Source: Chromatiales bacterium (GTDB lineage Bacteria; Pseudomonadota; Gammaproteobacteria; Chromatiales; Chromatiaceae). Taken from it: DNA of 37,009 bases. The notes below the pieces were generated by a model that saw nothing but the letters and a program-made list of their open reading frames with translations, was not told where the DNA came from and ran no database searches. Position 1 is the first letter of the stretch. The number at the start of each line of letters is the position of its first letter. The stretch lies in contig JANQEV010000099.1 of NCBI GenBank assembly GCA_028278145.1, positions 1 to 37,009 on the forward strand. Direction: 5' to 3'. The position numbers and the translations under genes were made by a program. Of the stretch, positions 1,736-37,009 are shown in pieces.

Positions 1736-2329
1736 CTAATCCGCCTCTATACACCTGGCCATCCGAAGTAACAGGCCTCTATTGGATTCACTCAGATTCG
1801 AGTAAAGCGTCATCAACTCCTGCATATCAACTGGAAAAGAGCTGCAGAGAGGGTCATTTTCAACATGCTGTTCATCCATCCATCCTCTTGGTTTTGTTAG
1901 ATAAGTTTCGCACTTGCGCATCATGCGCTCAGTGAGATCCAGAAATGGATTGGTGAGATGTGTATCCAGCTTCTTACGTGAAATTCCCAGTGCCTTTAAC
2001 AAAGGCGTCAGTTTTCTCCTGGATTTGGCTTCGTCAACGATTGCAACCAGATTCTGATGCCGAATGGCCTGCTCATCACGTCCAGTAGCCCGAATTGGCC
2101 CGGCACCAAACATGATCCAACATGGTGAAGCCCCGGTAGCGGTTGAGATCAGCTTGATATCGTCGGGAGAGGGCATGGAGATACCGGCCTCATAATTACC
2201 CAGCCGAGAGCGTTTCCATTCAGGTATGTTTACCAATAGTGAATCGGCGGTATCCATACCAGCCATTTTTCTTGCCTGTTTAATACGTTGTCCGATCAGG
2301 ACGGCCGTGGGATTTTTACCTTCGCTCAT
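1736..2329 (-). CDS. XRE-family helix-turn-helix transcriptional regulator (CI-like N-terminus, uncharacterised C-terminal domain)
   Basis: 197 aa. The N-terminus LIGQRIKQARKMAGMDTADSL is a typical HTH_XRE. It is transcribed divergently from a strong promoter. Confidence 0.65.
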   Translation of the reverse strand: MSEGKNPTAVLIGQRIKQARKMAGMDTADSLLVNIPEWKRSRLGNYEAGISMPSPDDIKLISTATGASPCWIMFGAGPIRATGRDEQAIRHQNLVAIVDEAKSRRKLTPLLKALGISRKKLDTHLTNPFLDLTERMMRKCETYLTKPRGWMDEQHVENDPLCSSFPVDMQELMTLYSNLSESNRGLLLRMARCIEAD

Positions 2330-3880: not shown

Positions 3881-4837
3881 ATGGACAAGAAACTACTGGA
3901 TGAAATCATTGCCTGTCTGCCCAAGGACAGGACACTGTTTCGCTATGCGAGAAACGATTATGCGTTGATGCTGCTGTCACGCTTCGTAGGCAAGGGCAAG
4001 AAGGTTGCGGAGATTAAACGCTCTCCTTTTGGACGACTGCTGGATAAGCCAGCGATCCGTGAGCTGCTGGCAGAGATAGGTGGCGGCCATATAAGTGGAG
4101 ATCTGTTTGATTATGTCTATGTAAAAGACAGACAAGACTTTCTACTGACCATAGGACGCTGGAATGAGGAGCGATCCCGTTACAACCAGACCACACGTAA
4201 CAGTGCCAATCTGGTGCTGCAGTTGAACTTCAACTGTGGACATGATCAGGCATTCGAGAAGTGCGTAGCAGAAGATGACCGCTGGCAGTTTGAGCCCTGG
4301 GGTCACCCAATATTCCAGCGTGGTGCCAGAAGCTACTTTCGCCACACCCTGGCCTGGGTACGCTTGGATATAGATTTTGATCTTGATGAGGTATTGATAG
4401 AGGAGGTACAGACCGATTGGCTACGTGATGCAAAGCAATATCTTTCCTGTCTGGAAGGAAGGGCTGAGCAAGTAGGAAAACAGGATAAGGAAGAGGTAAG
4501 GCGTGCCAGTAAGGCGCATGAGTATGTTGGTAACACCCTGGCGGCTTATTTCACCATGTGGGATGAGGCAGCCCTTGCAGCAGCGATTGAGTTTATTGCT
4601 GATGAACTGGGTATTGGTACCGTGTACTACCACTCCTTTGACACCGGGAATGTACTAAAAGGTCTGCGCTACGGTAAGCCGCCAAGGTCGCTGTATACAG
4701 ATCTTCCACGTAAGTTCTGCTTTGAGCTTACTGACGAAGCACCAAGGATGTTTCGTAACTCGACACCAGCCAAGCGAAAGCTGCGCAGGGCGTCTGATCC
4801 TAAATGGTATCGGTTACCACTGGAGATAAGAGCATGA
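3881..4837 (+). CDS. hypothetical protein (318 aa, no recognisable motif), translationally coupled to arfB
   Basis: A long ORF with coding-like composition. Its stop TGA at 4835-4837 overlaps the arfB start ATG at 4834-4836 (ATGA). Confidence 0.6.
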   Translation: MDKKLLDEIIACLPKDRTLFRYARNDYALMLLSRFVGKGKKVAEIKRSPFGRLLDKPAIRELLAEIGGGHISGDLFDYVYVKDRQDFLLTIGRWNEERSRYNQTTRNSANLVLQLNFNCGHDQAFEKCVAEDDRWQFEPWGHPIFQRGARSYFRHTLAWVRLDIDFDLDEVLIEEVQTDWLRDAKQYLSCLEGRAEQVGKQDKEEVRRASKAHEYVGNTLAAYFTMWDEAALAAAIEFIADELGIGTVYYHSFDTGNVLKGLRYGKPPRSLYTDLPRKFCFELTDEAPRMFRNSTPAKRKLRRASDPKWYRLPLEIRA

Positions 4838-5256
4838 TCAGGATAACCGAAACCATTGAGATTGATGAAGAGAGCCTGGAGTTCAAATCCATCTATGCCT
4901 CAGGGCCAGGTGGTCAGCATGTGAACAAGAACCGTACTGCAATGCAGTTGCGTTTCGATATCACCCAGGAACATGGCCTGAGCCATGGGGTGCAACAGCG
5001 CTTGATTAGACTGGCCGGAAACCGGGTAAGCAGTGATTACAAGCTGATCATTACCGCGCGCCGTTACCGTAGTCAGGAACGTAATCGCAAGGATGCCAGA
5101 GAGCGGCTGTTTGAACTGATACGCAAAGCGGCTGAACCACCTAAGCCCCGGCTAAAGCGCAGACGTTCCCGTGCAGCCAATCAGGATCGACTGGATGAGA
5201 AGCGCAAGCGCAGTGAAGCAAAGGCATCCCGCCGTAAGGTGATGCTTAATTATTGA
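4834..5256 (+). CDS. arfB: alternative ribosome-rescue factor ArfB (peptidyl-tRNA hydrolase, YaeJ family)
   Basis: 140 aa from the ATG at 4834. GGQ motif (SGPGGQHVNK). The basic C-terminal tail KRRRSRAANQDRLDEKRKRSEAKASRRK is typical of ArfB. Length matches E. coli ArfB. Confidence 0.85.
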   Translation: MIRITETIEIDEESLEFKSIYASGPGGQHVNKNRTAMQLRFDITQEHGLSHGVQQRLIRLAGNRVSSDYKLIITARRYRSQERNRKDARERLFELIRKAAEPPKPRLKRRRSRAANQDRLDEKRKRSEAKASRRKVMLNY

Positions 5257-5455: not shown

Positions 5456-5534
5456 GCGAAGATAGCTCAGTCTGGTTAGAGCAGCTGACTAAACCTCAGC
5501 GGGTCGCGGGTTCGACTCCCGCTCTTTTGCACCA
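5456..5534 (+). pseudogene. tRNA-like element, probably degenerate (anticodon loop CTAAACC gives anticodon AAA with C37)
   Basis: Clear D-arm (gctc agtctggtta gagc), a 5-bp anticodon stem gctga/tcagc, T-arm gcggg-ttcgact-cccgc and a 3' GCACCA. The acceptor has 6/7 pairs only if one extra T is allowed at the T-stem/acceptor junction. C at position 37 and anticodon AAA are atypical. A second T-arm-like fragment (gtggttcaaatccac) is at about 5568-5585. Confidence 0.35.
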
Positions 5535-5623
5535 GCCTATTACGCTGGCTTGGTAAAGGCGAAAGCCTGTGGTTCAAATCCACCCTTTGGATGTAGGTAA
5601 CATCACACCCGGGCGGTGCCCCC

Positions 5624-5863
5624 GTGGCTGAAGAGGCGGAAATGCAGTTGGTTACTAAATCTTCAGACTACAGCGCGCCAGTCGCCTTGTATGGCGATGC
5701 TCTGATCAGACCGGTGTATCTGGATAGCAATGACGGAGACAGCAAATTCGATTTGCGGTTCGGCACATGGATGTATGCTCTGGCATTGCCCTCCAATACC
5801 ACCCGTCTGGTTATGACTTGTCATCCGCGGCTGGAGCGTGGGGCATACGTCCACACATATTAA
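5624..5863 (+). CDS. hypothetical small protein (79 aa; alternative start at 5642 gives 73 aa)
   Basis: The ORF sits in an otherwise gene-free gap. There is a weak SD (gaggcgga) before the ATG at 5642. Nothing more. Confidence 0.3.
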   Translation: MAEEAEMQLVTKSSDYSAPVALYGDALIRPVYLDSNDGDSKFDLRFGTWMYALALPSNTTRLVMTCHPRLERGAYVHTY

Positions 5864-5977
5864 TGAAGCGAGGTGAATAGAGATGAGGAAAACATAGCTG
5901 GTCGGAGTGGCTACCTGGCATATGAGTGACCGGGTCCCGAGTTCGAAAATGCCACGCAATTGATAGGAATAAACAAT

Positions 5978-6250
5978 GGAGCCTCTGATTGATTCCATGA
6001 TGACTGAGACGCTGACTTTGCGTCTTGAGATGCAAGGCGGCTTGTGAAGTTAATGGCCTTAGTCCTTAGCAAGCAAGCCAACACAGCAGCTCTGGCGCAA
6101 AGACGCGTCCCGAAGGGTTTGCATCAAATGGTGTGCATACGGTGTTTTGGTGCTTGCTGTATAGCTATGGAATGCGGTCTTGGACCACTTTTTGCGATCA
6201 TCACTATTTGGATGCAAACTCGGTTTATCAGGGAATTGATCAGAGGCTCC
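5978..6250 (+). mobile_element. MITE-like repeat element, copy A (~273 bp, terminal inverted repeats GGAGCCTCTGAT.../...ATCAGAGGCTCC)
   Basis: The left 240 bp are homologous to 29452-29725 (copy B) and the whole to 36909-end (copy C). The termini are reverse complements of each other. Internal hairpin agacgc-loop-gcgtct with a variable loop. The internal ORFs (6044-6307) are not supported. Confidence 0.6.
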
Positions 6251-6269
6251 ACAAATAAGGAGAATAGCG

Positions 6270-16784: not shown

Positions 16785-17600
16785 ATGTTTAATATCAACA
16801 AGCTGCGCGCAATTTTTATACTATCCGCCTTATGGTTGTTGTTGGCCATGCCGATCTGGGCCGCAGAACCTTTAATTGTTGGTGGCTCTGGTGCAGATCT
16901 AGAGACCTTCAGAATACTCGCAAGAGAATTTTCCAAACTAAACCCCAAATGTAATATTAAAGTCATTCCAAGTATCGGCAGTAGTGGTGCGGTACGAGGT
17001 GTAGCTACGGGCCGGGTTGATCTGGGTCTCTTGTCTCGCCCTCTAAAGGAGAAGGAGAGGAAGCATGGATTGACTGTGATTCCTTATGCAGATACAGCTT
17101 TGGTCTACGTGGTGGCAAAAGGGCACCATGTAAAACAGGTTGATACGGATACGTTGAGAAGAATATATACTGGTGGCGACAATACCCATGGACTCAGGCC
17201 AGTACTACGCCCAAGACTTGATTCAGACACATTAGTGTTGCAAGAGAAGCTACCTGCAATAAGAGATGCTTTGGATCAGGCTTATAGTAGAAAAGGGGTG
17301 CCCATTGGTACTTCAGACCAGGCAGCAGTAAATATATTGCTAAAATCCGAGGATATTATTACAACCTCTACCCTGTCGCTGGTGATGAGCGAAAAACCTG
17401 CAGTACAGGTACTGAGTCTCAACGGTGTTACCCCAAATGCTTCAACCATCTCTAATGGAACCTACCCACTAGTAAAGCAGTTATTCATGTTGCATGATGA
17501 CAACATGAGGGGGCTTGAAAGCAGATTCATTGAATTCGTTCTATCTGAAAAGGGAGCAGATATACTCGCGCGGACAGGGCATGTCACAATGAAACCCTGA
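16785..17600 (+). CDS. periplasmic solute-binding protein (PBP superfamily, PstS/phosphate-binding-like fold) with signal peptide
   Basis: 271 aa. Signal peptide LRAIFILSALWLLLAMPIWAA. Gly/Ser-rich binding loops (IPSIGSSGAVRGVATGRVD). Its stop abuts the start of the GGDEF-EAL gene (17600/17603). Confidence 0.6.
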   Translation: MFNINKLRAIFILSALWLLLAMPIWAAEPLIVGGSGADLETFRILAREFSKLNPKCNIKVIPSIGSSGAVRGVATGRVDLGLLSRPLKEKERKHGLTVIPYADTALVYVVAKGHHVKQVDTDTLRRIYTGGDNTHGLRPVLRPRLDSDTLVLQEKLPAIRDALDQAYSRKGVPIGTSDQAAVNILLKSEDIITTSTLSLVMSEKPAVQVLSLNGVTPNASTISNGTYPLVKQLFMLHDDNMRGLESRFIEFVLSEKGADILARTGHVTMKP

Positions 17601-17602
17601 TC

Positions 17603-19861
17603 ATGCGCTATGGAAATACAGTGCAGAGCCTGTTAAGGATCCCAGGTGTTCTGTGGAAGCTTAGTACCGTTCTGGCAATCATAATAGCTGTGGCTCCCGC
17701 ACTGGGTTACTGGATAATCTCTTATCATTATCAATCCAATAACATTAAGAATGTTGCAGAGCAGATAGCCCATACAGTTTCCGAATATGCTTACTTGAAT
17801 CCAACCGGTTGGGATCTGGAGGTATATCGACTTGATCATATATTGACACAGCATGATCACTTTGGAACTGAGGTAAACATTCAAGTATTAGATAGCTTTG
17901 GTGAGTCGCTTATACCAGGTACAAAACAGCAAGTTACTATGCCAATTAGTAGGCAGGCACCTGTGGTTAATGGTAATAGTGTTGTTGGGGCCGTAGTTAT
18001 AGAGGCGAGTCTTTCTTATATCGCGACTATAACGGGTACTATTGCCCTGTTTAGTTTTGTCTTGGCTCTGGGAATTATTGGTGTTATTAACCGTTACTAC
18101 ATACTTGGGATTAAAAGCGCCACGCTGAAAATTGACCATGCACACAGGGAACTGCAGCAGCAGAGGAGCTATCTGGACAGTATCCTTACTTCATCAAAGA
18201 ACGTAGGTATCATCGCTACGGATAGCGCTTGGGCTATACAATATTGCAACCAGGCGGCAAAACAGATATTTGGATGTGATGAAGATAATGCATTGTCTAT
18301 GCCATTGCATAAGATTCATGATGAACTGCGCAACCAGATAGATAAGTTCAATAATGCTTTGCGTGGAGATGGTGATAATCTGGAACAATCATTCATGATT
18401 CAGGATGATCATGAATCAGGGAAGCGATTTATAGATGCACGGCTGTCGTCTATTCATGATGCGCAGTATGGTAAGTCCGGCTATACCTTGATTTGCAGTG
18501 ATGTTACGGATCAGCAAAAGGCGGCTGAGCTTATCCAGTATCAGGCTACATATGACAGCCTGACAAACCTGCCGAACCGGCGCATGTTTCATGATCTGCT
18601 GAGCAAGGCCATTGCACGAGCAAAGCGGCATGGGCATATCGGAGGTGTGCTGTTTCTGGATCTGGATAATTTCAAACATGTGAATGATTCGCTGGGTCAT
18701 GGGGTTGGAGATCAGCTGTTACAGCAAACCGCTAACCGTATGGAAGCCTGTCTGCGGCAAGAGGATACCGTGGCCCGTTTGGGTGGTGATGAATTTGTAG
18801 TGGTAGTACCTGAGATGTCAGATGACTATGACACTACGGTTAACGGTCTTCAGGAACTCGCATATAAGGTACAGTCTACACTGTCAAAACCATATAACAT
18901 TCCACCGCATACTTTACATGTGACTACCAGTATCGGGATATCGGTGTTCCCCAATGGTGATGAAAATGGCGCAGATGATGTAATGCGACAGGCCGATACC
19001 GCAATGTATCGTGCCAAGGCCGATGGCCGCAATACCATAAAATTCTTCCTGCCCAGGATGCAGCATGTGGCAGAGGAGAGGCTGAAAATCCTGGAGGATC
19101 TGCGCCTGGGGATAAATCGATCTGAATTTGAAGCGTATTTCCAACCGCAGTTTGATGTGGTGGGGAAGGTAATTGGTGCTGAGGCCCTGATACGCTGGCA
19201 ACATCCAGAGCGGGGAATAGTAATGCCGGATAAATTCATCTCAGTAGCGGAGGAGAGTACCGTTATCCTGGAACTGGGTGACTTTATGCTGGAGACGGCC
19301 TTGGAAAAGGTGCGTGGATGGCTGGAGAATGGAGTGATTCCAAACTCGTTTCGCATCTCAGTGAATATTAGTCCGCAACAGTTCAGGCAGGCAGATTTTG
19401 TACGCAAGACAGAACGTGCCATCGCAAGATCTGGTGTGAGACCGCATAATCTGACCCTGGAACTGACTGAAAACGTCCTTCTGAAGGATGTGGATACAGC
19501 AGCAGAAAAGATTAGTGCCCTGAAGAGTATTGGGGTGCGATTCTCTCTGGATGATTTTGGTACCGGTTATTCATCACTGGCCTATCTGAAACGACTGGCG
19601 GTAGATGAGGTAAAAGTTGACCGGTCATTTGTCCGGGATATTTTTGTGGATGACAGTGATGCGGCCCTGGTAGAGGCCATAGTCAGTCTATCATCCCGTC
19701 TGAATCTCCATACAGTAGCTGAAGGTGTGGAGACTGAGGAGCAGCTTCAATCTCTCAAGCATCTGGGTTGTCTGGCATATCAAGGTTATCTGTACAGCAA
19801 GCCTTTGTCTGCGCAAGACTTCGACTCATTTCTGGAGTCAAAGAAAATTATAGTTGTCTGA
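17603..19861 (+). CDS. membrane sensor PAS-GGDEF-EAL protein (c-di-GMP cyclase/phosphodiesterase)
   Basis: 752 aa. Two TM segments flank a periplasmic domain. A PAS region. Intact GGDEF (RLGGDEFVV) and EAL (EALIRW ... DDFGTGYSSL) motifs. Confidence 0.85.
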   Translation: MRYGNTVQSLLRIPGVLWKLSTVLAIIIAVAPALGYWIISYHYQSNNIKNVAEQIAHTVSEYAYLNPTGWDLEVYRLDHILTQHDHFGTEVNIQVLDSFGESLIPGTKQQVTMPISRQAPVVNGNSVVGAVVIEASLSYIATITGTIALFSFVLALGIIGVINRYYILGIKSATLKIDHAHRELQQQRSYLDSILTSSKNVGIIATDSAWAIQYCNQAAKQIFGCDEDNALSMPLHKIHDELRNQIDKFNNALRGDGDNLEQSFMIQDDHESGKRFIDARLSSIHDAQYGKSGYTLICSDVTDQQKAAELIQYQATYDSLTNLPNRRMFHDLLSKAIARAKRHGHIGGVLFLDLDNFKHVNDSLGHGVGDQLLQQTANRMEACLRQEDTVARLGGDEFVVVVPEMSDDYDTTVNGLQELAYKVQSTLSKPYNIPPHTLHVTTSIGISVFPNGDENGADDVMRQADTAMYRAKADGRNTIKFFLPRMQHVAEERLKILEDLRLGINRSEFEAYFQPQFDVVGKVIGAEALIRWQHPERGIVMPDKFISVAEESTVILELGDFMLETALEKVRGWLENGVIPNSFRISVNISPQQFRQADFVRKTERAIARSGVRPHNLTLELTENVLLKDVDTAAEKISALKSIGVRFSLDDFGTGYSSLAYLKRLAVDEVKVDRSFVRDIFVDDSDAALVEAIVSLSSRLNLHTVAEGVETEEQLQSLKHLGCLAYQGYLYSKPLSAQDFDSFLESKKIIVV

Positions 19862-19867
19862 TGTCTA

Positions 19868-20101
19868 TTACAGTATGTTCTGCCACAACAGATAACAGCC
19901 GCCTGTGATTACAGCCAGTTGGATGATCATTGAGAAGATGACAGCAGCAACCTCCACCAATGTGACAACAGGCGCCTGCGTAGACCATCTCTGGTGAGTA
20001 TTTTGACGAAATTCTGAGATGGTCAGATAACGCCATACCATTGAGTGGTCAGCCCGGGGTGAGTGGTGAAACATACTAGCACTTAAATCACGACCAAACA
20101 T
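19868..20101 (-). CDS. possible small membrane protein (77 aa, one C-terminal TM helix)
   Basis: A good SD on the minus strand (aggagggtaaaaacATG). Hydrophobic stretch VVTLVEVAAVIFSMIIQLAVITGGCYLLW. No homology recognised. Confidence 0.35.
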   Translation of the reverse strand: MFGRDLSASMFHHSPRADHSMVWRYLTISEFRQNTHQRWSTQAPVVTLVEVAAVIFSMIIQLAVITGGCYLLWQNIL

Positions 20102-20329
20102 GTTTTTACCCTCCTAATTCCACCGCATAGTATCCACAAACTCTGTTACATGATGATGTGGCTTTTATTACAGTTTTTTGTCAGCCGACCAGCGGCACAT
20201 AGATATCTGTAATATCCGGTTTTTAAAGGGGATATTGTGGTTATGACTGTCATCATTACTTAGTGATGCCGTAATAAAAGCATCATACGGTTAGGGTACA
20301 AATACGCCCATGATTTGCTATGGGAGTAG

Positions 20330-21148
20330 ATGCTCATGACCAGGCTGGATTATCAGGCCATCTGGATCTCCGATACTCATCTGGGTCTGAAAGAGGCCCG
20401 TTCCGAGTCCCTGTTGGATTTTCTCCGCCATACCCAGTGCCGCAAACTCTACTTAGTGGGAGACATCATAGATGTCTGGAAGATGCGCTCCGGTCTGTAT
20501 TGGCCAGCTATCAACAACGAGATCGTCCGCACCATAATGCGCATGGCACGTGAAGGCACTGAGGTGATCTATGTGCCAGGCAATCATGATGAAGTGTTCC
20601 GGGATTATCTGGGGCTGTTTTTTGGTGGTATCAGGATCGAGAGTGAGGTTGAACATCAGGCGGCTGATGGGAAACGTTACCTGATACTGCACGGAGATGA
20701 ATTTGACTGTGTAGTGATGCATAACAAATGGTTGGCTCATATTGGCAGTAGCGCCTATGACATGCTGCTTTGGTGCAACCGCTGGTTCAACTTGGTTCGG
20801 CGCAGATTGGGAATGTCTTACTGGTCTTTGTCAGCCTATCTGAAGAACAAGGTGAAAGAGGCAGTCAAGTACATAGGTAATTATGAACAGGCAGTTGTAC
20901 GTGCCGCCAGAGAACGGAATATGGACGGTGTGATCTGCGGACATATTCATCAGGCGGCACTTACCCAGTTTGAGGAGATAACCTACGCCAACTGTGGCGA
21001 CTGGGTTGAGAGTTGTACTGCCCTGGCAGAAGAGGCAGATGGAACTATACGCCTGATCCACTGGGCTCATGAGAGCGTACTATTACTCGACGAGGTAAAC
21101 AGATATGCGGATTGCACTGATAACGGACGCGTGGTCACCACAGGTTAA
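20330..21148 (+). CDS. metallophosphoesterase of the LpxH-like / PlcP (phosphate-starvation phospholipase C) type
   Basis: Calcineurin-like motifs ISDTHLG, LYLVGDIIDVW, VPGNHDE and ICGHIHQ. Followed by, and overlapping 44 nt with, a GT4 glycosyltransferase, as in the plcP-agt lipid-remodelling pairs. Confidence 0.65.
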   Translation: MLMTRLDYQAIWISDTHLGLKEARSESLLDFLRHTQCRKLYLVGDIIDVWKMRSGLYWPAINNEIVRTIMRMAREGTEVIYVPGNHDEVFRDYLGLFFGGIRIESEVEHQAADGKRYLILHGDEFDCVVMHNKWLAHIGSSAYDMLLWCNRWFNLVRRRLGMSYWSLSAYLKNKVKEAVKYIGNYEQAVVRAARERNMDGVICGHIHQAALTQFEEITYANCGDWVESCTALAEEADGTIRLIHWAHESVLLLDEVNRYADCTDNGRVVTTG

Positions 21149-22163
21149 TGGAGTTGTTCGAACCCTCAAACGCACAGTCCAGGAACTGGAAGGGTTGGGA
21201 CATGAAATTCTTTTGATTACGCCGGAACTTTTCAGAACCATTCCCATGCCAAGCTATCCAGAGATTCCCATATCTATAATGCCAGGGCGTAAAGTGGCTC
21301 GGATGCTGGATAGTTTTGACCCAGAGGCAGTACATATAGCCACCGAGGGTTCTATAGGGTGGTCGGCACGGCGTTACTGTCTGAAGCGGAAACGTCCTTA
21401 CACCAGTGCCTATCACACCCGTTTTCCAGAATATGTCCGCTTACGTGCACCGATCCCGCTCTCCTGGTCTTACGCTATTATGCGCCGTTTCCACGACTCT
21501 GCTGTACAGACCATGGTGGCAACTGCCTCGCTGCAGGCAGAACTGGAGGATAAAGGGTTCAATAATCTGGTTCGATGGTCACGTGGCGTTGATACCGAGC
21601 GCTTTCATATGCAATCAAGCGATGCACTGGTCGGCATAAAGCCGGCCTTTCTTTATCTGGGTCGGGTAGCGGTGGAAAAGAATATAGAGGCATTTCTTTC
21701 TTTGGATCTGCCGGGACAAAAATATGTGATTGGTGATGGGCCTGCTATGGCAGATCTGCAACAGTGTTTTCCAGAGGTGCAGTTTCTTGGTTACCTGGAA
21801 AACGGCACTCTGGCCCGCACCCTGTCAGCTGCAGATGTGATGGTATTTCCCAGTCTGACAGATACCTTTGGACTGGTAATGCTAGAGGCCATGGCCTGTG
21901 GGGTACCAGTGGCAGCGCTTCCAGCCCCGGGACCTGTGGATGTAATAATTAACGGGGTGAATGGTTGGGTGGATGAAAATCTGCGCCAGGCATGTATAAA
22001 TGCTCTGCAGGTAAATCGGGACTCCTGTCGTAGGTTTGCTGAACAGAACTCTTGGGAGGCGTGTACTCAGCAGTTCTTGAGTAATCTTTGCCCCACACCA
22101 TCTATATCTAATTCAACTGCTGAACAATCCAGTGAGAGTAAAGTAGCTCCGGCAAAATCTTAG
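21105..22163 (+). CDS. glycosyltransferase family 4 (Agt-like glycosyl-diacylglycerol synthase candidate)
   Basis: 352 aa. The N-terminus MRIALITDAWSPQVNGVV is typical of GT4/GT-B enzymes. The C-terminal donor-binding region is FPSLTDTFGLVMLEAMACGVPV. Confidence 0.75.
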   Translation: MRIALITDAWSPQVNGVVRTLKRTVQELEGLGHEILLITPELFRTIPMPSYPEIPISIMPGRKVARMLDSFDPEAVHIATEGSIGWSARRYCLKRKRPYTSAYHTRFPEYVRLRAPIPLSWSYAIMRRFHDSAVQTMVATASLQAELEDKGFNNLVRWSRGVDTERFHMQSSDALVGIKPAFLYLGRVAVEKNIEAFLSLDLPGQKYVIGDGPAMADLQQCFPEVQFLGYLENGTLARTLSAADVMVFPSLTDTFGLVMLEAMACGVPVAALPAPGPVDVIINGVNGWVDENLRQACINALQVNRDSCRRFAEQNSWEACTQQFLSNLCPTPSISNSTAEQSSESKVAPAKS

Positions 22164-22329
22164 TACTAATAGCAGATAGCTATAGTGTAATTCCACTGCT
22201 GTCAGATACGCCTGCAATATAGCTGCAATAAAACTATCACTGGTCTTTCATGCAGTTATCATAAAACCGTTATCTGGTTTCCTTAACATAGTCGAAATGA
22301 TAGGTCTTTAATTCGATTAAGGGGAACCA

Positions 22330-24153
22330 ATGAATAATCAAGCAAGCAATCTTCCCTTCAAACTCAACGGTGCACTGGGGCTAAATCGTATTCCACTACT
22401 GGAGCCAATAGTAGAGCGCTCCCTGGCATTGCACCACCTGAACCGTTTATATAACGATCAGCCAAAGACCAGCAGCTGTATGGAATTTCTGGAGCAGACG
22501 CTCAAGGCCTTCAACGTAAGATATCTAACCTATTCTGGAGAACTGGATAATATTCCGCAACAAGGGCCTGCAATTATGGTTGCCAACCATCCGTATGGTG
22601 CCATTGAAGGGGTGGTTTTGACTTACCTACTGCTACAGATAAGACCGGATATTAAGATAATGGCCAATCAGTTTCTGTATCGGATACCCGAGTTGCGTGA
22701 GCTGTTTATTGGTGTGGATTCGTTTGGAAGCAACCAGGCATCCAAGAGCAATAGCGGGCCATTACGTGAGGCCATACGCTGGGTCAGGAAAGGTGGTTTG
22801 CTGCTGGTGTTTCCTGCGGGTGAAGTTTCCTATTATCGGTTGGACAAGGGGTGTGTGACGGATCCGGAATGGAGTAGTAGCATCGCCCGGCTTATACGCA
22901 TGAGCGGGGCTGCAGTTATCCCATCATACATACATGGCAATAATGGAGTGATGTTCCAGCTTGCTGGTCTGGTACACCCGCGACTACGCACTGCACTGCT
23001 ACCGCGCCAGTTAACCAACAAGTATGGCCATTTGATGCCAATCAGGATTGGTGAGGCTATATCCCCTCAGAAACTGTCTAGCCCTGGACTGACCAATGAG
23101 GAGTTGTCCAACCAACTACGGTTGCGATGTTACATGCTGGCGGAGAAACTGATCCCAACCGGGAGACGGTCAGGTTATATTGCATCTAACCGTACTATCC
23201 CAGTTGCGTCCCAGGTACATACAGATACTGTATTGCAGCAAGAGGTGACAAGATTATCTGCCGAACAGCGGCTTGTGGATGGTGATGAGATGCAGGTTTA
23301 TTATGCCCATGCAGATCAGATCCCAAATCTTATGCAGGAAATTGGGCGTCTACGTGAACTGACCTTTCGCGCTACCGGTGAGGGGACTGGCAGGGAGCGT
23401 GATATCGATTTGTACGATTCCTACTATCTACATCTGTTTATCTGGAACAAGAAAGAGTCTGAACTTGTAGGAGCCTATCGCCTGGGACTGGTAGACCAAA
23501 TTACCAGGAAATATGGAATCAAAGGACTCTACAGCTTCTCTCTGTTCAAATACCGTCGCTCCATGATAGATCGTATCAGTCCTGCCATCGAACTGGGTCG
23601 TTCCTTCATCCGTAAAGAGTACCAGCGCAGCTTTTCCCCACTATTGCTGTTGTGGAGGGGTATAGGAGCCTATGTTTGTCGTAACCCCAAGTACCGTATC
23701 CTGTTTGGACCGGTGAGCATCAGTAGTGAATACAAAAGCTTGTCACAGCAGATGATGGTGAGTTTCCTGATGTCAAATCGTAGTCATACTGGTCTGGCTC
23801 AGCAGATAAAACCGCGTCGTCCTTTTCAATCAGGTAAAGAGGCAAAGCTGCTTGATGGTATATCTGATTTCAAAGATCTTGATCTGGTTTCTGATCTGAT
23901 CTCCCAACTGGAGCCAGATGGGAAGGGTGTTCCTATTTTACTGAAGCAGTATCTGAAGATGGGAGGACACATACTCGGGTTTAATGTTGATAAAGAGTTC
24001 AATAACTCATTGGACGGTTTGGTAATGGTGGATCTTGAGCAAAGCCCACAAAAGCTGTTGCAGCGCTATATGGGCAAAGATGGTGCTGCACGGTTTCTCG
24101 ACTCCACTCCTCACACAAGGACTTCAATTCCCATAACCCAACTAACTGGTTGA
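22330..24153 (+). CDS. bifunctional acyltransferase, OlsF-like (N-terminal PlsC-type O-acyltransferase + C-terminal OlsB/GNAT-like N-acyltransferase); aminolipid (ornithine-lipid-type) synthase candidate
   Basis: 607 aa. The N-terminal half has an HX4-type acyltransferase region (VANHPYGAIEG, FPAGEVS). The C-terminal half resembles OlsB/hemolysin-like N-acyltransferases. The two-domain order matches OlsF. Confidence 0.65.
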   Translation: MNNQASNLPFKLNGALGLNRIPLLEPIVERSLALHHLNRLYNDQPKTSSCMEFLEQTLKAFNVRYLTYSGELDNIPQQGPAIMVANHPYGAIEGVVLTYLLLQIRPDIKIMANQFLYRIPELRELFIGVDSFGSNQASKSNSGPLREAIRWVRKGGLLLVFPAGEVSYYRLDKGCVTDPEWSSSIARLIRMSGAAVIPSYIHGNNGVMFQLAGLVHPRLRTALLPRQLTNKYGHLMPIRIGEAISPQKLSSPGLTNEELSNQLRLRCYMLAEKLIPTGRRSGYIASNRTIPVASQVHTDTVLQQEVTRLSAEQRLVDGDEMQVYYAHADQIPNLMQEIGRLRELTFRATGEGTGRERDIDLYDSYYLHLFIWNKKESELVGAYRLGLVDQITRKYGIKGLYSFSLFKYRRSMIDRISPAIELGRSFIRKEYQRSFSPLLLLWRGIGAYVCRNPKYRILFGPVSISSEYKSLSQQMMVSFLMSNRSHTGLAQQIKPRRPFQSGKEAKLLDGISDFKDLDLVSDLISQLEPDGKGVPILLKQYLKMGGHILGFNVDKEFNNSLDGLVMVDLEQSPQKLLQRYMGKDGAARFLDSTPHTRTSIPITQLTG

Positions 24154-24453
24154 TTAAGGCCTTATTATCTCTTGCAGTATGGAGGTGTTTGAGTAGCCAG
24201 GAAGGTTATTCCTATAGTGACTGTCTGATCTCTGTGGTGTAGATAATTCCAAAATAATGATCTGTATTATTGTCTAGTGCAGACAGATTTATGTGGCTTA
24301 TCTGATCTGCTAATCCCTTAAAATAAATAACCCTACCTGAGTTTAAGGAAATCTATTCTCTGTATTAAAGAATCACCGGTAATTGCCGATCTATACAGGT
24401 AGCAGCCAGTACCCAATAATCCCGCATAGATTGATGACTTATGTATGTGTTGA

Positions 24454-27453
24454 TTGCAGTGTAGGTATCTGTGCTCTATCCGTAACAAAGTTAGGCAATT
24501 AGATGGAGATGGTGATTTGCACTGGCTAAAAAGCCTGATCTGTAAAATTAAAATTCGTCGACTCCTGCTGATTGTGATGGGATTGCTCAGTGCAGTGGCG
24601 ATATCGGCGCTGATGTGGAATGGCTACAATGTCCTACAGCAGTATCGTACTGCTAGTCGCTTGGCCTTGAACAGTGAACTGGCGGACAAGTCTCTCCTGT
24701 TTACCACTGAATTGGCCATTGAGCGTGGTCTTACCTACACCCTGTTAGCATCTTCTGATGCCCCTCAACCAGAGGCTTTGTTGCATCTGGAGGAGCAGCG
24801 AAAACGAGTTGATAAACGGTTTCATGCATTCCTGCGAATTCTTAATACACACTATATGCCTGATACGACAGAAGCCCTGCCACAGGGTTTCCGTATTTTT
24901 CAGAGACATAATCTGCAACTGGATAGGCTGCGCAATGAGATAGATTCCGTCTTTGAAAAACAGGTCAAGAAAGACATCTCAATGCAGTGGTTTGGACTGG
25001 TTACCTGGATAATTGAGGACGTTTCGCGCTTGCAGCGTGAGATTATGACTTCAACCCATGAGGCAGGGTATGTTATTGCACAGGGTCAACAGTTACGCTC
25101 GCTATTTTTCAGAATGACTGAAACAGCTGGGCTTGAGCGGGCCCTCATTGCCCAAAAGATCGCGTTGAAAAGGCGGCTTAATGATGACGATCTGAATCAA
25201 ATTGCAGATTTTCAGGAAGTACATAATAACGGCCATTTACAGTTACTGGAATTGATCAAGGAGTACCCGGATACAGGTGAACTGGGCCTGGCCATGGCAA
25301 GCTACAAGGCAGTATTCCGTGACAGCTATAAACGTCTTCGTAGGACGGTAATAGATGCCTCAGCTAGAGGAGTAAGTTATCCTTTATCGGCACTGGACTG
25401 GTTTTCTGAGGCCACTAAGGCCATAGATACAATAATAAAACTTTCCGAAGCATTTACTCACCATCACCGGTCTGATGTGGCTGTGATACAACGGCAGGCA
25501 AATAATACGGTGTTTACCATGGCAGGTACTGTTGTATTGGTGTTGCTGCTATTTACTTTTGCTTATTTAATCACCTATCGCCGCATACTAATACCACTGC
25601 AGATTCTGGACCAAGCGGCCAAAACTATCCAGCAGGGAGATCTGGGTCGGGAAGTGTCTCTAAGAGCCAGTGATGAGTTTGGGCGTTTGGGACAAAGCTT
25701 TGAATCCATGCGCCAGAGCCTGCTGGCAGACCGTGAACAGCGTGACAAAGCAGAGCAGGAACTGCGCAAGCTGCACCAGGCTGTAGAACAGAGCATAAGC
25801 TCACTGGTAATAACCGATGCACAAGGGGTCACTGAATATGTAAATCATCGTTTCGAATTGACTACTGGATATTCACCTGAGGAGGTTATTGGTAAAAAGT
25901 ACAACATTGTTCGCTCCGGTCACACACCAACAAAGGTCTACCAGGACTTATGGGATACCATCACCTCAGGTGATGTCTGGGAGGGAGAACTGCTTAATCG
26001 GAAGAAGAGTGGTGAACTATTCTGGGAACTGGTCAGCATCTCTCCTGTAAGCAATAAACAGGATGAAATTACCCACTTCATTGGCATGCATTATGATATT
26101 ACGCAACGCAAACACATGGAGGAGAAGCTGAATTATCTGGCCTATCATGATGAGATGACCGGGCTTCCCAACCGCACCCTGCTGGCAGACAGATTTCAAC
26201 AACTCACCAGTCAGTCTAAACGCAGGTCAGTCCAATTTGCCTTGCTGATGTTAGACCTGAATCGTTTCAAACTTATCAATGATAGCCTGGGCCATGAAAC
26301 TGGTGATCAGGTATTGGTAGAGGTTGGTGATCGACTGTTGCAGCTGGCGCGTAGTGAAGACACCGTGGCACGCTATGGTGGCGATGAGTTTGTGCTACTG
26401 GTAACAGATATTGAATCTGCAACAGACATAACTGAAATTGCACATCGTATTAATCGCAAGGTCAGTGAGCCTCTCTATATTGAAGAGCGTACCTTGCACA
26501 TTGGTTGTTCTATTGGGGTTGCCATCTGGCCACAGGATGGTGAAACCCTGGATAATCTTCTAAGTAATGCCGATGCCGCCATGTATCAGGCCAAGACTCG
26601 TAGTGGAGACAAACTGCAATTCTTTACCGACGAGTTGAATGCTAAAGTGCAACAGCGTATGGAGATGGAAAACGATCTGCGTGAAGCACTCACCAGAAAT
26701 GAATTGGAGCTATATTATCAACCCCAGTTCAATTTACAGGATGAGTGTATTACCGGGATTGAGGCCTTGCTACGCTGGAATCACCTGGATGGTATGGTTA
26801 TGCCAGATCGGTTTATTCCTCTGGCTGAGGAGACAGGCCTTATACTCCCCATTGGTGAGTGGGTTCTTGATCAGGCTTGTCAGCAGGTAGTGCAGTTAGA
26901 ACAGCTGGGGTATCCGGATCTGTCGGTATCTATCAATGTATCTGTGCGGCAATTGGAGGGGCAGGATATAGTCTCGGTTTTTAAACAGCTTATTAAAAGA
27001 ACTGGTATATCTCCTTCATCACTGGAAATTGAGATCACTGAAAGTGTAATGATGGATGATCCTGAAACCATGATTGAATCTCTGGCCAAACTGAAAAGCC
27101 TGGGGGTAAAATTGGCCTTGGATGATTTTGGAACTGGACACTCATCTCTTTCTTACCTGCAGCGTTTCCCCTTTGACAGACTCAAGATCGATCGTGCCTT
27201 TGTACGTAACATCACCGCCAACTCAGACGATGCCGCCATTGCCATTACCATAGGAGCAATGGCAAAAAGCCTTAATCTGGAGGTTATTGCAGAAGGTGTG
27301 GAAGATGAGGATCAGATGGATTTCCTGTTGGAGTGTGGGTGTAATCACATCCAAGGCTACATTATCAGCAAGCCGGTTCCGGCGAGTGAGCTCGTTGCTG
27401 TTCTGAAAAAATTTAAATCTTGTGCAAAGGATAAGCACCATATCACCACTTGA
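24454..27453 (+). CDS. membrane sensor HAMP/PAS-GGDEF-EAL protein (start codon uncertain)
   Basis: 999 aa ORF. TM helices, a coiled-coil, PAS, intact GGDEF (RYGGDEFVLL) and EAL (EALLRW ... DDFGTGHSSL). Confidence 0.8.
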   Translation: MQCRYLCSIRNKVRQLDGDGDLHWLKSLICKIKIRRLLLIVMGLLSAVAISALMWNGYNVLQQYRTASRLALNSELADKSLLFTTELAIERGLTYTLLASSDAPQPEALLHLEEQRKRVDKRFHAFLRILNTHYMPDTTEALPQGFRIFQRHNLQLDRLRNEIDSVFEKQVKKDISMQWFGLVTWIIEDVSRLQREIMTSTHEAGYVIAQGQQLRSLFFRMTETAGLERALIAQKIALKRRLNDDDLNQIADFQEVHNNGHLQLLELIKEYPDTGELGLAMASYKAVFRDSYKRLRRTVIDASARGVSYPLSALDWFSEATKAIDTIIKLSEAFTHHHRSDVAVIQRQANNTVFTMAGTVVLVLLLFTFAYLITYRRILIPLQILDQAAKTIQQGDLGREVSLRASDEFGRLGQSFESMRQSLLADREQRDKAEQELRKLHQAVEQSISSLVITDAQGVTEYVNHRFELTTGYSPEEVIGKKYNIVRSGHTPTKVYQDLWDTITSGDVWEGELLNRKKSGELFWELVSISPVSNKQDEITHFIGMHYDITQRKHMEEKLNYLAYHDEMTGLPNRTLLADRFQQLTSQSKRRSVQFALLMLDLNRFKLINDSLGHETGDQVLVEVGDRLLQLARSEDTVARYGGDEFVLLVTDIESATDITEIAHRINRKVSEPLYIEERTLHIGCSIGVAIWPQDGETLDNLLSNADAAMYQAKTRSGDKLQFFTDELNAKVQQRMEMENDLREALTRNELELYYQPQFNLQDECITGIEALLRWNHLDGMVMPDRFIPLAEETGLILPIGEWVLDQACQQVVQLEQLGYPDLSVSINVSVRQLEGQDIVSVFKQLIKRTGISPSSLEIEITESVMMDDPETMIESLAKLKSLGVKLALDDFGTGHSSLSYLQRFPFDRLKIDRAFVRNITANSDDAAIAITIGAMAKSLNLEVIAEGVEDEDQMDFLLECGCNHIQGYIISKPVPASELVAVLKKFKSCAKDKHHITT

Positions 27454-27623: not shown

Positions 27624-27739
27624 GGTGGCCTGTGTCGGTCCCCTCGCAACGTGAAGCCGTGAACCCGGTCAGGCCCGGAAGGGAGCAGCCGCAGCGGTGG
27701 AATCGTGTGCCGGGGTGTGGCTGATGCGGGCCGCCACCC
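27624..27739 (+). ncRNA. ffs: signal recognition particle RNA (4.5S RNA)
   Basis: Contains the conserved domain-IV core GGUCAGGCCCGGAAGGGAGCAGCC. The 5' end GGUGGCC pairs with the 3' end GGCCGCCACC. About 116 nt. It sits immediately upstream of dnaX, as in many gammaproteobacteria. Confidence 0.8.
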
Positions 27740-27828: not shown

Positions 27829-29451
27829 ATGAGTTATCAGGTCCTGGCCCGTAAGTGGCGTCCTCGTCTGTTTGCAGAACTGGTTGGCCAGGAACATGTG
27901 GTCCAGGCACTCACCAATGCCTTGGATCATGATCGTCTGCACCACGCCTACCTGTTCACCGGAACCCGCGGGGTTGGTAAGACAACACTGGCACGTATCT
28001 TTGCCAAATCCCTGAATTGTGAGCAGGGGGTTACTTCGGTTCCATGTGGCCAGTGTAGTGTCTGCGTGGAGATTGATGAGGGTCGCTTTGTTGACCTGCT
28101 GGAGGTGGATGCAGCTTCCAGAACCAAGGTGGACCAGACCCGTGAACTGCTGGATAACGTCCCCTATGCCCCCGTACGTGGTCGCTACAAGGTGTACATC
28201 ATAGATGAGGTGCACATGTTCTCAGACAGCAGTTTCAACGCACTGCTGAAGACCTTGGAAGAACCGCCACCCCATGTCAAATTTCTCCTGGCCACGACCG
28301 ATCCCCAAAAAGTTCCGGTTACAGTCCTGTCGCGCTGTCTGCAGTTTAATCTGAAGCGTCTGCCACTGGATCAGATCCAGGAGCGCCTGGAGCAGATTCT
28401 GCAGCAGGAATCTGTAGAGCATGATGTTTCTGCCCTGATGCAGCTGGCACGCGCTGCTGATGGAAGTATGCGTGATGCCTTGAGCCTTATGGATCAGGCC
28501 ATTGCCTTCGGTGGTGGTGAAGTTAAGGATGCTGAGGTTCGTACCATGCTGGGCACCATAGCCACTGAACAGGTGTTCAAGCTGCTGGAAGCATTGGCGG
28601 ATATGGACCCGCAGCGGGTAGTGGATTGTGTAGCGGAGCTAGCGGAGCGAGTGCCAGATTTTGCCAGCGTGTTGCAGGAGTTACTCTCCATGTTACACCG
28701 CACCGCACTCTATCAGGCAGTGCCCAAGGCTGTGGATGTCACTGATGTTGACCATGATCAGATACAGCTGTTAGCACAGAAGATGGCGCCAGAGGATGTG
28801 CAGTTGTTCTACCAGATAGGATTGGTTGGCCAGCGTGACCTGCCTCTGGCACCGGATCCGAGAAGTGGTTTTGAGATGGTATTGCTTAGAATGCTCGCCT
28901 TCCGACCGGAACAGGGTGCTGCTCAGGAGAGGAGCAGTACTGGAAAAAAGCCTGAGCCGGCCACAGCAAAGCCGCAGCAGGTTGCAGCGGCACCTAAAGC
29001 TGTCACTAGACCTGAGCCTGTACCTGCGGCACGTGCAGCAGTGGAGACCAGTCAAACTGGTACTCCTGCAGATCTGAAGGATTGGAGCAGGGTTATATCT
29101 GGGCTGAAAGTAGGGGGGATCTCGCGCCAGCTGGCGGAAAACTGCCAGTATCGTGAGTGGGATGGCACAACTCTGACCCTGACCCTGGATCCGGCCCATG
29201 AACACATGCGGGTGGAGAGTTCTGAACACCGTCTGGTACTGGCCCTGCAGGAGTTTCTGGGGACAGATGTTAAGCTGAAGATACAGGTGGAGCAGCCAGA
29301 ATCAGAAACTCCGGCCCAGCAACAGGCAAGGGCCAAGGCTGAGCGGCAGTGTGAAGCAGAACGGACCATGTCGGAAGATCCGTTGGTGCGGGCTGCAGAA
29401 GAGCAGTTTGGGGCCAGATTGATAGCCGAGTCGATCAAGCCTATAGACTAA
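27829..29451 (+). CDS. dnaX: DNA polymerase III subunits tau/gamma
   Basis: Starts MSYQVLARKWRPRLFAELVGQEHV, as E. coli DnaX does. Walker A GTRGVGKTT, a zinc module and the clamp-loader boxes. Followed by ybaB-recR. Confidence 0.9.
   Translation: MSYQVLARKWRPRLFAELVGQEHVVQALTNALDHDRLHHAYLFTGTRGVGKTTLARIFAKSLNCEQGVTSVPCGQCSVCVEIDEGRFVDLLEVDAASRTKVDQTRELLDNVPYAPVRGRYKVYIIDEVHMFSDSSFNALLKTLEEPPPHVKFLLATTDPQKVPVTVLSRCLQFNLKRLPLDQIQERLEQILQQESVEHDVSALMQLARAADGSMRDALSLMDQAIAFGGGEVKDAEVRTMLGTIATEQVFKLLEALADMDPQRVVDCVAELAERVPDFASVLQELLSMLHRTALYQAVPKAVDVTDVDHDQIQLLAQKMAPEDVQLFYQIGLVGQRDLPLAPDPRSGFEMVLLRMLAFRPEQGAAQERSSTGKKPEPATAKPQQVAAAPKAVTRPEPVPAARAAVETSQTGTPADLKDWSRVISGLKVGGISRQLAENCQYREWDGTTLTLTLDPAHEHMRVESSEHRLVLALQEFLGTDVKLKIQVEQPESETPAQQQARAKAERQCEAERTMSEDPLVRAAEEQFGARLIAESIKPID
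28944..28955 (+). promoter_or_regulatory. dnaX: dnaX programmed -1 ribosomal frameshift site (slippery heptamer A AAA AAG followed by TGA in the -1 frame)
   Basis: The in-frame codons are GGA AAA AAG CCT GAG. After a -1 slip the ribosome reads AAG GCC TGA, so the gamma subunit would end at 28953-28955, mirroring the E. coli mechanism. A GC-rich imperfect hairpin (gccgcagc...gcagcggc) lies about 20 nt downstream. Confidence 0.7.
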
Positions 29452-29725
29452 GGAGCCTCTGATTAATTCCATGATGGCCGAGACGCTGCTTTTGCGTCTT
29501 GAGATGCAAGGCGGCTTGTGCAGCTAATGGCCTTAGTCCTTAGCAAGCAAGCCAACACAGCAGATCTGGCGCAAAGGCGCGTCCCGAAGGGTTTGCACCA
29601 AATGGCGCGCTCGCTGTGTTGTGGCGCTTGCCGTATAGCTTTGGCATGCGGCCTGCGCACCACGCCTTGCGATCATCGCCATTTGGATACAAACTCGGTT
29701 CATCAGCGAACTAATCAGAGGCTCC
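29452..29725 (+). mobile_element. MITE-like repeat element, copy B (274 bp), inserted directly after the dnaX stop codon
   Basis: Starts with GGAGCCTCTGATT one base after the TAA and ends with AATCAGAGGCTCC. Flanked on both sides by CTAA (possible target-site duplication). The internal ORF 29518-29733 is not supported. Confidence 0.6.
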
Positions 29726-29751
29726 CTAATTGAAATAGTGAGGTAAGTGTT

Positions 29752-36901: not shown

Positions 36902-36908
36902 TTACTAA

Positions 36909-37009
36909 GGAACCCCTGATTAATTCCATGATGGCCGAGACGCTGCCTTTGCGTCTTGAGATGCAAGGCGGCTTGTGCAGCTAATGGCCTTAGTCCTTAG
37001 CAAGCGAGC
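36909..37009 (+). mobile_element. MITE-like repeat element, copy C (truncated by the window end), 8 bp upstream of the glnD start codon
   Basis: About 95% identical to copy B over the 101 bp visible. The terminus is a variant (GGAACCCCTGATT) and is preceded by ACTAA. Confidence 0.55.

Follow-up and report, generated by a model that had tools for sequence, protein, structure and literature searches.

What are the three closely similar sequences of about 274 bp that lie between the genes of this DNA, and how did they come to be there? The window analyzed here, 37,009 bp long, is an entire contig of ordinary chromosomal DNA of an uncultured Sedimenticola-like gammaproteobacterium, and the closest named relatives of its YbaB protein belong to Sedimenticola and Sedimenticolaceae. 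The repeats are very probably a new family of MITEs, non-autonomous elements that sit between housekeeping genes. The first-pass annotation had offered a MITE as one of two possibilities, and the features that speak for it are terminal inverted repeats, a full length of 273 to 274 bp (under the bound of about 600 bp), no conserved coding sequence, several dispersed copies with unrelated flanks, a 4-bp target-site duplication at one insertion (site B), an internally deleted derivative, and presence/absence polymorphism, with five empty alleles at site A and four at site B.

Copy A (positions 5978 to 6250, plus strand, 273 bp) and copy B (29452 to 29725, plus strand, 274 bp) are full length, as defined by alignment and nhmmer. 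Copy C (36909 to 37009, plus strand) comprises the left 101 nt only, because the window is the whole contig and ends within the repeat. That the three copies occupy these positions in the same orientation, and that all are intergenic, had been proposed from the outset, and both points hold for every copy. A and B are 87% identical over 274 nt (E = 5e-94), and the 101 nt of C are 96% identical to B and 91% to A. The similarity among the three is bounded sharply at GGAGCC...GGCTCC, and the flanks beyond these bounds share no similarity. Segmental duplication including the flanking genes, the alternative against which the repeats were checked, is excluded by the unrelated flanks together with the sharp bounds at the inverted ends. 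The left half had also been described as the better conserved one; this is seen with copy A but is specific to it, as B and a copy found in another organism (L010, described below) are 89 to 90% identical in both halves. Special constraint on the left half was therefore rejected, the asymmetry being a peculiarity of copy A.

The family disturbs assembly. Besides the contig itself, which ends in copy C, two Logan unitigs from the same sample break within copies, one starting 68 nt before the right end of copy B and the other breaking off after the first 37 nt of copy C, as expected of an assembler that meets a multi-copy repeat. Since assemblies break within copies, the genome-wide family suggested by the density of the repeats is plausible for the source organism; the dispersed copies found are three in 37 kb and those of two other organisms. 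The start of the contig presents a different repeat, an 84-nt direct repeat with 95% identity at positions 1 to 84 and 301 to 384 (300-nt spacing), each unit of which opens in a hairpin resembling a terminator (GGGGTCCCtttcGGGACCCC and then a run of T), so that the contig both starts and ends within repeated sequence.

A metagenome-assembled contig with one copy at its very end could also lead one to regard the repeats as immobile, either as remnants of segmental duplication or recombination or as an assembly artefact. Against this, the flanks are unrelated, the copies differ by 4 to 13%, unlike assembly duplicates, they recur in independent assemblies and samples (a Logan unitig, a Sedimenticolaceae MAG, and a JGI metagenome), and relatives have precise empty sites. 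This explanation is exceedingly improbable.

The ends of the element read GGAGCCTCTGATT... and ...AATCAGAGGCTCC. In copy A, the left terminal inverted repeat (GGAGCCTCTGATTGATTCCATGATGACTGAG) spans 5978 to 6008 and pairs in the predicted fold with the right one (CTCGGTTTATCAGGGAATTGATCAGAGGCTCC) at 6219 to 6250, which was delimited by comparison of the ends and by the fold. In copy B, the left repeat at 29452 to 29482 and the right one at 29694 to 29725, placed by the fold and by alignment of left with right, match at 27 of 32 positions. The inverted repeat thus extends over about 31 bp and is imperfect, with the first 12 to 14 nt perfect. The perfect 13-bp terminal repeat claimed earlier is present in copy B, whereas copy A reaches 12 of 13 (right end GATCAGAGGCTCC); the left end of copy C is altered to GGAACCCCTGATT. 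As the best-conserved part of the element, the outer ~31 bp would be the ends bound by a transposase.

The symmetry is not confined to the ends. Over the whole length, the left half is similar to the right half in reverse complement (alignment score of 73, versus 13.6 ± 5.1 in shuffled sequences), so that the entire element reads as a degenerate palindrome, an inverted duplication of a unit of about 137 bp. The nhmmer profile of the element likewise matches its own copies on the minus strand (E = 6e-11). The predicted single-strand fold is a Y, with a closing stem formed by the ends and two long hairpins. Folded as RNA, copy A reaches −122.8 kcal/mol (z = −7.35) and copy B −142.5 kcal/mol (z = −9.08); with DNA parameters, copy B gives a z of −7.1. 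The hairpin reported earlier as retained with three different loops is there, with GAGACGC/GCGTCT enclosing TGACTTT, TGCTTTT, or TGCCTTT, and in the global fold the partner of GAGACGC is a distal GCGTC rather than that of the local hairpin.

Open reading frames of 66 to 92 amino acids overlap the copies on both strands, in fair agreement with the spurious frames of 70 to 90 amino acids first described; the expected misannotation does not appear, none of them being called as a gene in a collection of 5.8 billion protein clusters. The frames are not kept among copies: the minus-strand frame has a stop in copy A, and the plus-strand one has a 4-nt deletion in L010. Neither the plus-strand nor the minus-strand translation has a homologue in the same collection. 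With frames broken between copies and no protein homologues, the element is, as judged from its sequence, non-coding and its open reading frames spurious. Neither a transposase gene nor a RAYT gene is present in the 37,009-bp window.

The genomic setting of each copy was compared with that in related contigs, which were retrieved via the proteins neighboring the copies. Copy A has on one side a conserved non-coding region that follows a tRNA-like gene and on the other slipin (Band_7) and rtcB, lying 19 nt before the slipin ATG. Five related contigs (L007, L008, L009, L017, and L018) lack the element at site A, and their flanks align at about 82 to 95% identity up to the insertion point. The left flank of copy A, ACAAT (5973 to 5977), is an imperfect match to the right flank, ACAAAT (6251 to 6256), differing by one indel or substitution, and the empty alleles have a single RCAAAT to which both align. 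These flanks are possibly a decayed target-site duplication.

The surroundings of site A are variable in other respects. The tRNA gene (5456 to 5534, plus strand) is located between a gene with an RF-1 domain (4804 to 5256) and slipin-rtcB, downstream of an HNH endonuclease gene. ARAGORN assigns it the anticodon AAA (Phe, unusual for bacteria) and assigns CAT (Met) to its counterparts in three close relatives (L007, 9360 to 9437; L008, 1468 to 1545; L009, 6870 to 6947), while outside the anticodon the tRNA is nearly identical between the window and these relatives. This tRNA, whose anticodon loop varies and which neighbors the RNA ligase RtcB and a protein resembling release factors, may belong to a module for RNA damage/repair or for defence. 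The non-coding stretch of about 440 nt that follows the tRNA (5535 to 5977) is conserved at about 82 to 89% in five related contigs and has no match in Rfam. It contains an indel hotspot near 5856 to 5870, at which relatives carry insertions of about 100 bp (L007 and L008) or about 290 bp (L017); these contain the palindrome CTCCCTCTCCC..AGGGAGAGGGTTGGGGTGAGGG and are apparently another small repeat family.

Copy B separates dnaX from ybaB-recR. Four contigs (L011 to L014), with YbaB proteins 93 to 98% identical to that of the window, lack the element at site B, and their dnaX-ybaB spacer measures only about 20 to 27 nt. The empty allele reads ATAGACTAAatattt, with a single CTAA (L011 and L012), and the filled allele reads ATAGACTAA[element]CTAAttg, with CTAA on both sides. 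The left CTAA (29448 to 29451) contains the dnaX stop codon TAA, and the right CTAA (29726 to 29729) was identified by comparing the filled with the empty allele. By this comparison, site B carries a 4-bp target-site duplication, CTAA, that regenerates the dnaX stop codon. Duplications of TA (IS630-type), of TAA, and of 5 bp (Tn3-type) were considered for site B and rejected, because they need non-complementary extra end bases or an extra deletion, while CTAA is exact. As the empty B allele has CTAA, the tetranucleotide belongs to the target and not to the element.

Two further observations concern the region around dnaX. The bacterial small SRP RNA gene (ffs) is found at 27633 to 27729 (plus strand; 72.9 bits in Rfam), just upstream of dnaX, which is an ordinary arrangement. 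Between an Endonuclease_NS gene and dnaX, gene content differs between the window (16785 to 27453) and L011 (5343 to 8078), the contig with 98% YbaB identity. The ~11 kb before dnaX in the window hold a PBP-like gene, two GGDEF-EAL genes, and phosphoesterase, glycosyltransferase, and acyltransferase genes, and the corresponding region of L011 has LysR and catalase genes instead, which points to a local rearrangement or an island.

Copy C starts 7 nt upstream of the start codon of glnD, which is on the minus strand, so that the copy is antisense to it. The CTAA that abuts its left end (36905 to 36908) is presumably the target site or the left copy of a duplication. Taken together, the comparison of alleles shows that the element has been mobile: orthologous sites are empty in relatives, and CTAA is single in the empty and double in the filled B allele.

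Beyond the window, the family was found in two other organisms. An exact 20-mer scan of 185,579 species genomes returned five matches, one of them a true copy in a Sedimenticolaceae MAG (L003); the other four have no similarity past the seed of about 20 to 22 nt and were treated as chance. The L003 copy (5108 to 5244, minus strand) is a 137-bp derivative that has kept about 70 nt of each end and lost the interior. Its left flank is CTAA and its right flank CTGA. On one side its neighbor is a small open reading frame that follows two frames which, from their size and position, we take to be hflK and hflC, and on the other side is a frame read as a presumed hisZ. An exact 21-mer scan of JGI metagenomes also yielded one true copy, L010 (1558 to 1873, minus strand), which is full length and carries a nested insertion of 45 nt. 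This insertion (1812 to 1856, minus strand) is inside the left end of the element, is flanked by a TCCAT direct repeat, and looks like a nested micro-insertion or a slippage duplication. No recognizable target-site duplication borders the L010 copy (GCAG/TTGG). Size variants of these two kinds, by internal deletion in L003 and nested insertion in L010, are typical of MITEs.

Other searches were negative. Related genomes have no copy in about 75 kb, and the nhmmer profile of the element detected no further or diverged copies in 178 kb of collected sequence. Two internal patterns had no match in viral contigs; two viral-contig matches to the end pattern were discarded as chance, lying within a phage coding region and having no other similarity. 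A blastn search with copy B against plasmids and phages gave nothing significant. Literature searches turned up no paper connecting MITEs to Sedimenticola and no mention of the accessions. Since the genome and metagenome k-mer scans gave one extra copy each, the family is rare outside the source lineage and, as far as seen, belongs to a few Sedimenticolaceae lineages. That it is confined to one lineage, with close relatives empty at the same sites, indicates, on present comparisons, a lineage-specific and recent expansion.

With L003 and L010 included, five independent insertions are available for describing the target. CTAA stands at the left end in three of the five (B, C, and L003), far beyond chance for a tetranucleotide, and it does not in A and L010. 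The duplication is perfect at one insertion only (B), and both its length and its universality rest on few cases. The insertions fall in housekeeping operons (dnaX-ybaB-recR, glnD, and the putative hisZ), and copies appear to persist where little harm is done, in very short spacers, next to a stop codon or shortly before a start codon. Relative to the neighboring gene, A, B, and the L003 copy are in the sense orientation, and C and the L010 copy are antisense.

These features suggest how the element would move. A DDE transposase encoded elsewhere in the genome would bind both ends, acting in trans; it would excise or copy the element and insert it at short AT-rich targets, preferably CTAA, and staggered cuts followed by repair would duplicate 4 bp. 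The leading candidate for the trans partner is a transposase of the IS5 family, a tentative choice to which we give somewhat less than even chances. It is favored because the 4-bp CTAA duplication fits the target of IS5, whose 4-bp duplications have the motif YTAR, which includes CTAA (PMC5009759). By this motif, the target is of YTAR type at B (CTAA on both sides), at C (CTAA on the left), and in L003 (CTAA/CTGA), and not at A or in L010. The candidate is held no more firmly because a parent IS was not found, in a window free of transposase genes and by genome and metagenome scans that probed an internal 20- or 21-mer, and because two insertions are outside YTAR. The ends of the element also seem to bear no obvious resemblance to IS5 ends.

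Recurrence of CTAA on one side raises another possibility, that the element was moved by non-DDE means, either a site-specific recombinase or a single-strand transposase of the IS200/IS605 or RAYT type; in the single-strand version, the hairpins would be recognized and insertion would occur 3' of the fixed tetranucleotide CTAA. Such a mode would account for three of five copies having CTAA 5' to the left end and only one having a clean duplication, and the hairpins are strong in single-stranded DNA (z = −7.1). However, "peel and paste" elements make no duplication, whereas site B has CTAA on both sides and its empty allele has it once. The inverted ends of about 31 bp pair together, while IS200/IS605 derivatives are without long terminal inverted repeats, and A and L010 are not preceded by CTAA at all. 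Movement of this kind is very unlikely.

Two classes of palindromic repeat associated with such transposases were rejected as the identity of the family. REP, BIME, and REPIN sequences, mobilized by RAYT, are palindromic units of 20 to 40 nt without target duplication and with an associated RAYT gene; the present elements have 274 bp, inverted ends of 31 bp, and a 4-bp duplication, and the window has no RAYT or transposase gene. Derivatives of IS200/IS605 have neither terminal inverted repeats nor a duplication and insert 3' of a fixed tetra- or pentanucleotide; the present family has both inverted ends and a duplication, although CTAA does recur 5' of the left end.

Movement by a DDE transposase places the family among the MITEs, several groups of which it resembles. 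IS5-derived bacterial MITEs and the eukaryotic PIF/Harbinger-Tourist elements are likewise small and non-coding, with inverted repeats, a TAA-containing target, and a short duplication, and internal deletion derivatives and presence/absence polymorphism are further features in common. The target therefore resembles that of IS5-type or Tourist-type elements, with CTAA here corresponding to YTAR there; as differences, the present family has two of its five insertions outside YTAR, and no IS5-family element with its ends (GGAGCCTCTGATT...) came to light. Correia elements of Neisseria (CREE/NEMIS) are also intergenic MITEs with long inverted ends, often inside operons and with internally deleted variants; they are abundant and form a long hairpin in mRNA that can affect processing and expression. 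They measure about 100 to 155 bp, with 26-bp ends and a TA duplication, and have documented promoter elements as well as IHF and RNase III sites, whereas the present elements have 274 bp, a CTAA duplication, an unrelated sequence, and no promoter consensus.

ERIC/IRU sequences of enterobacteria and Vibrio are comparable in being imperfect palindromes over their whole length, in lying in transcribed intergenic regions, in having size variants due to indels, and in forming a stable RNA stem-loop. ERIC sequences are about 127 bp long and have no clear mobility or duplication; the family described here differs in its unrelated sequence, its demonstrable empty sites, and its duplication. The Tn3-derived TIMEs are similar in size (about 250 bp), in their long inverted ends, and in being non-coding. 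TIMEs have 38-bp ends starting with GGGG and 5-bp duplications, unlike the GGAGCC start and the 4-bp duplication at site B found here. The present family thus behaves like Correia, ERIC, and other palindromic bacterial MITEs, and by its sequence it is a member of none of them.

The folds also have to be considered as RNA, since roles as terminators, mRNA-stability elements, or sources of sRNA had been suggested for the family. These roles find little in their favor: there is no Rfam match, no terminator or sigma-70 promoter consensus, the orientation is mixed, and covariation is suggestive only. Rfam 15 searched over the copies gave no match at the gathering score, with the hits at E values up to 10 being snoRNA-type noise of 10 to 17 bits, and scans of the element for the sigma-70 promoter and intrinsic-terminator consensus found neither. 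In an alignment of five sequences, 95.8% of the cells of the predicted structure are paired. Seven pairs are compensatory, against 3.1 ± 1.4 in shuffled alignments (2 of 500 shuffles reach 7) and 0 to 2 in slid controls, a comparison that draws on these five sequences; six of the seven are in the right hairpin. The compensatory pair first pointed out, T-A in copy A and C-G in copy B, is real and is one of the seven (columns 201 to 273). Such changes, in this modeled structure, hint at constraint on structure and are weak as evidence for RNA function.

The two strands are not equivalent in the consensus. It folds better on the plus strand (−107.3 kcal/mol) than on the minus strand (−96.8 kcal/mol), and plus-strand paired positions include 22 with G-U against 6 with A-C, a count to be read with the structure having itself been predicted on the plus strand. 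Folded copy by copy, L010 is equal on both strands and L003 is better on the minus strand. The changes private to copy A number 13 C>T versus 3 G>A on the plus strand, concentrated in the right half, and turn G-C into G-U pairs; this bias could be due to selection for RNA pairing or to deamination of the non-template strand. The G-U excess is weak as evidence for an RNA role because it comes largely from copy A and strand-biased deamination explains it equally well.

From these data one could argue for a primary role as structured RNA, in which the element would be a module acting on mRNA in cis or encoding an sRNA, would spread as a repeat, and would be mobile only secondarily; its Y fold might, for example, be selected as an RNase III/RNase E processing site or a stabilizing site inside operons. 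The very stable folds (z of −7.4 and −9.1), the seven compensatory pairs, mostly in the right hairpin, and the G-U count with the better plus-strand consensus fold agree with this, as does the sense orientation of A, B, and L003 inside operons, where they would hence be transcribed through. It is at odds with Rfam being empty even at an E value of 10, with C and L010 being antisense to the neighboring gene, with the absent promoter and terminator consensus, and with the short L003 copy, which lacks both hairpins and has retained the ends. The strand asymmetry is inconsistent among copies (L010 and L003), the G-U excess is largely the C>T bias of copy A, for which deamination is an equally good explanation, prediction of the structure on the plus strand biases the G-U count, and palindromic DNA folds well regardless of function. 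An element that is principally an RNA module is, accordingly rated, quite unlikely. Plain selfish DNA, for its part, requires neither the compensatory pairs nor the plus-strand folding advantage.

The MITE reading leaves room for effects on host transcripts. Copy B splits the dnaX-ybaB junction, which is tight in relatives, and is therefore probably transcribed through; a transcript crossing a copy would contain a very stable Y structure of about 274 nt. The ends, read outward, present AGAGG or AGGGG 10 to 11 nt before the ATG of the putative hisZ in L003 and of glnD at copy C, and from its position this terminal motif may be a replacement ribosome-binding site for the adjacent gene. An extension of these observations is that the element is a mobile cassette combining an RNA structure with a portable ribosome-binding site, tolerated or used by the host within operons and kept foldable by selection. 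This is a long shot. If true, it would account for the compensatory changes seen in the right hairpin and for the tolerance of G-U pairs among sense-strand changes, as well as for the element's ability to insert between the native Shine-Dalgarno sequence of a gene and the start codon without abolishing expression, with glnD and the L003 hisZ as examples.

As a MITE family, the element is a common kind of selfish DNA and opens no new class of system. For annotation, the open reading frames of 66 to 92 amino acids within the family must not become gene calls, and the family should be masked as a repeat. The repeat breaks assemblies of the source Sedimenticolaceae lineage, as seen from the contig and the Logan unitigs that end within copies, and the family is usable as a strain marker. 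With both filled and empty sites at hand, it is a clean natural example of a MITE and a convenient system for how such insertions are tolerated.
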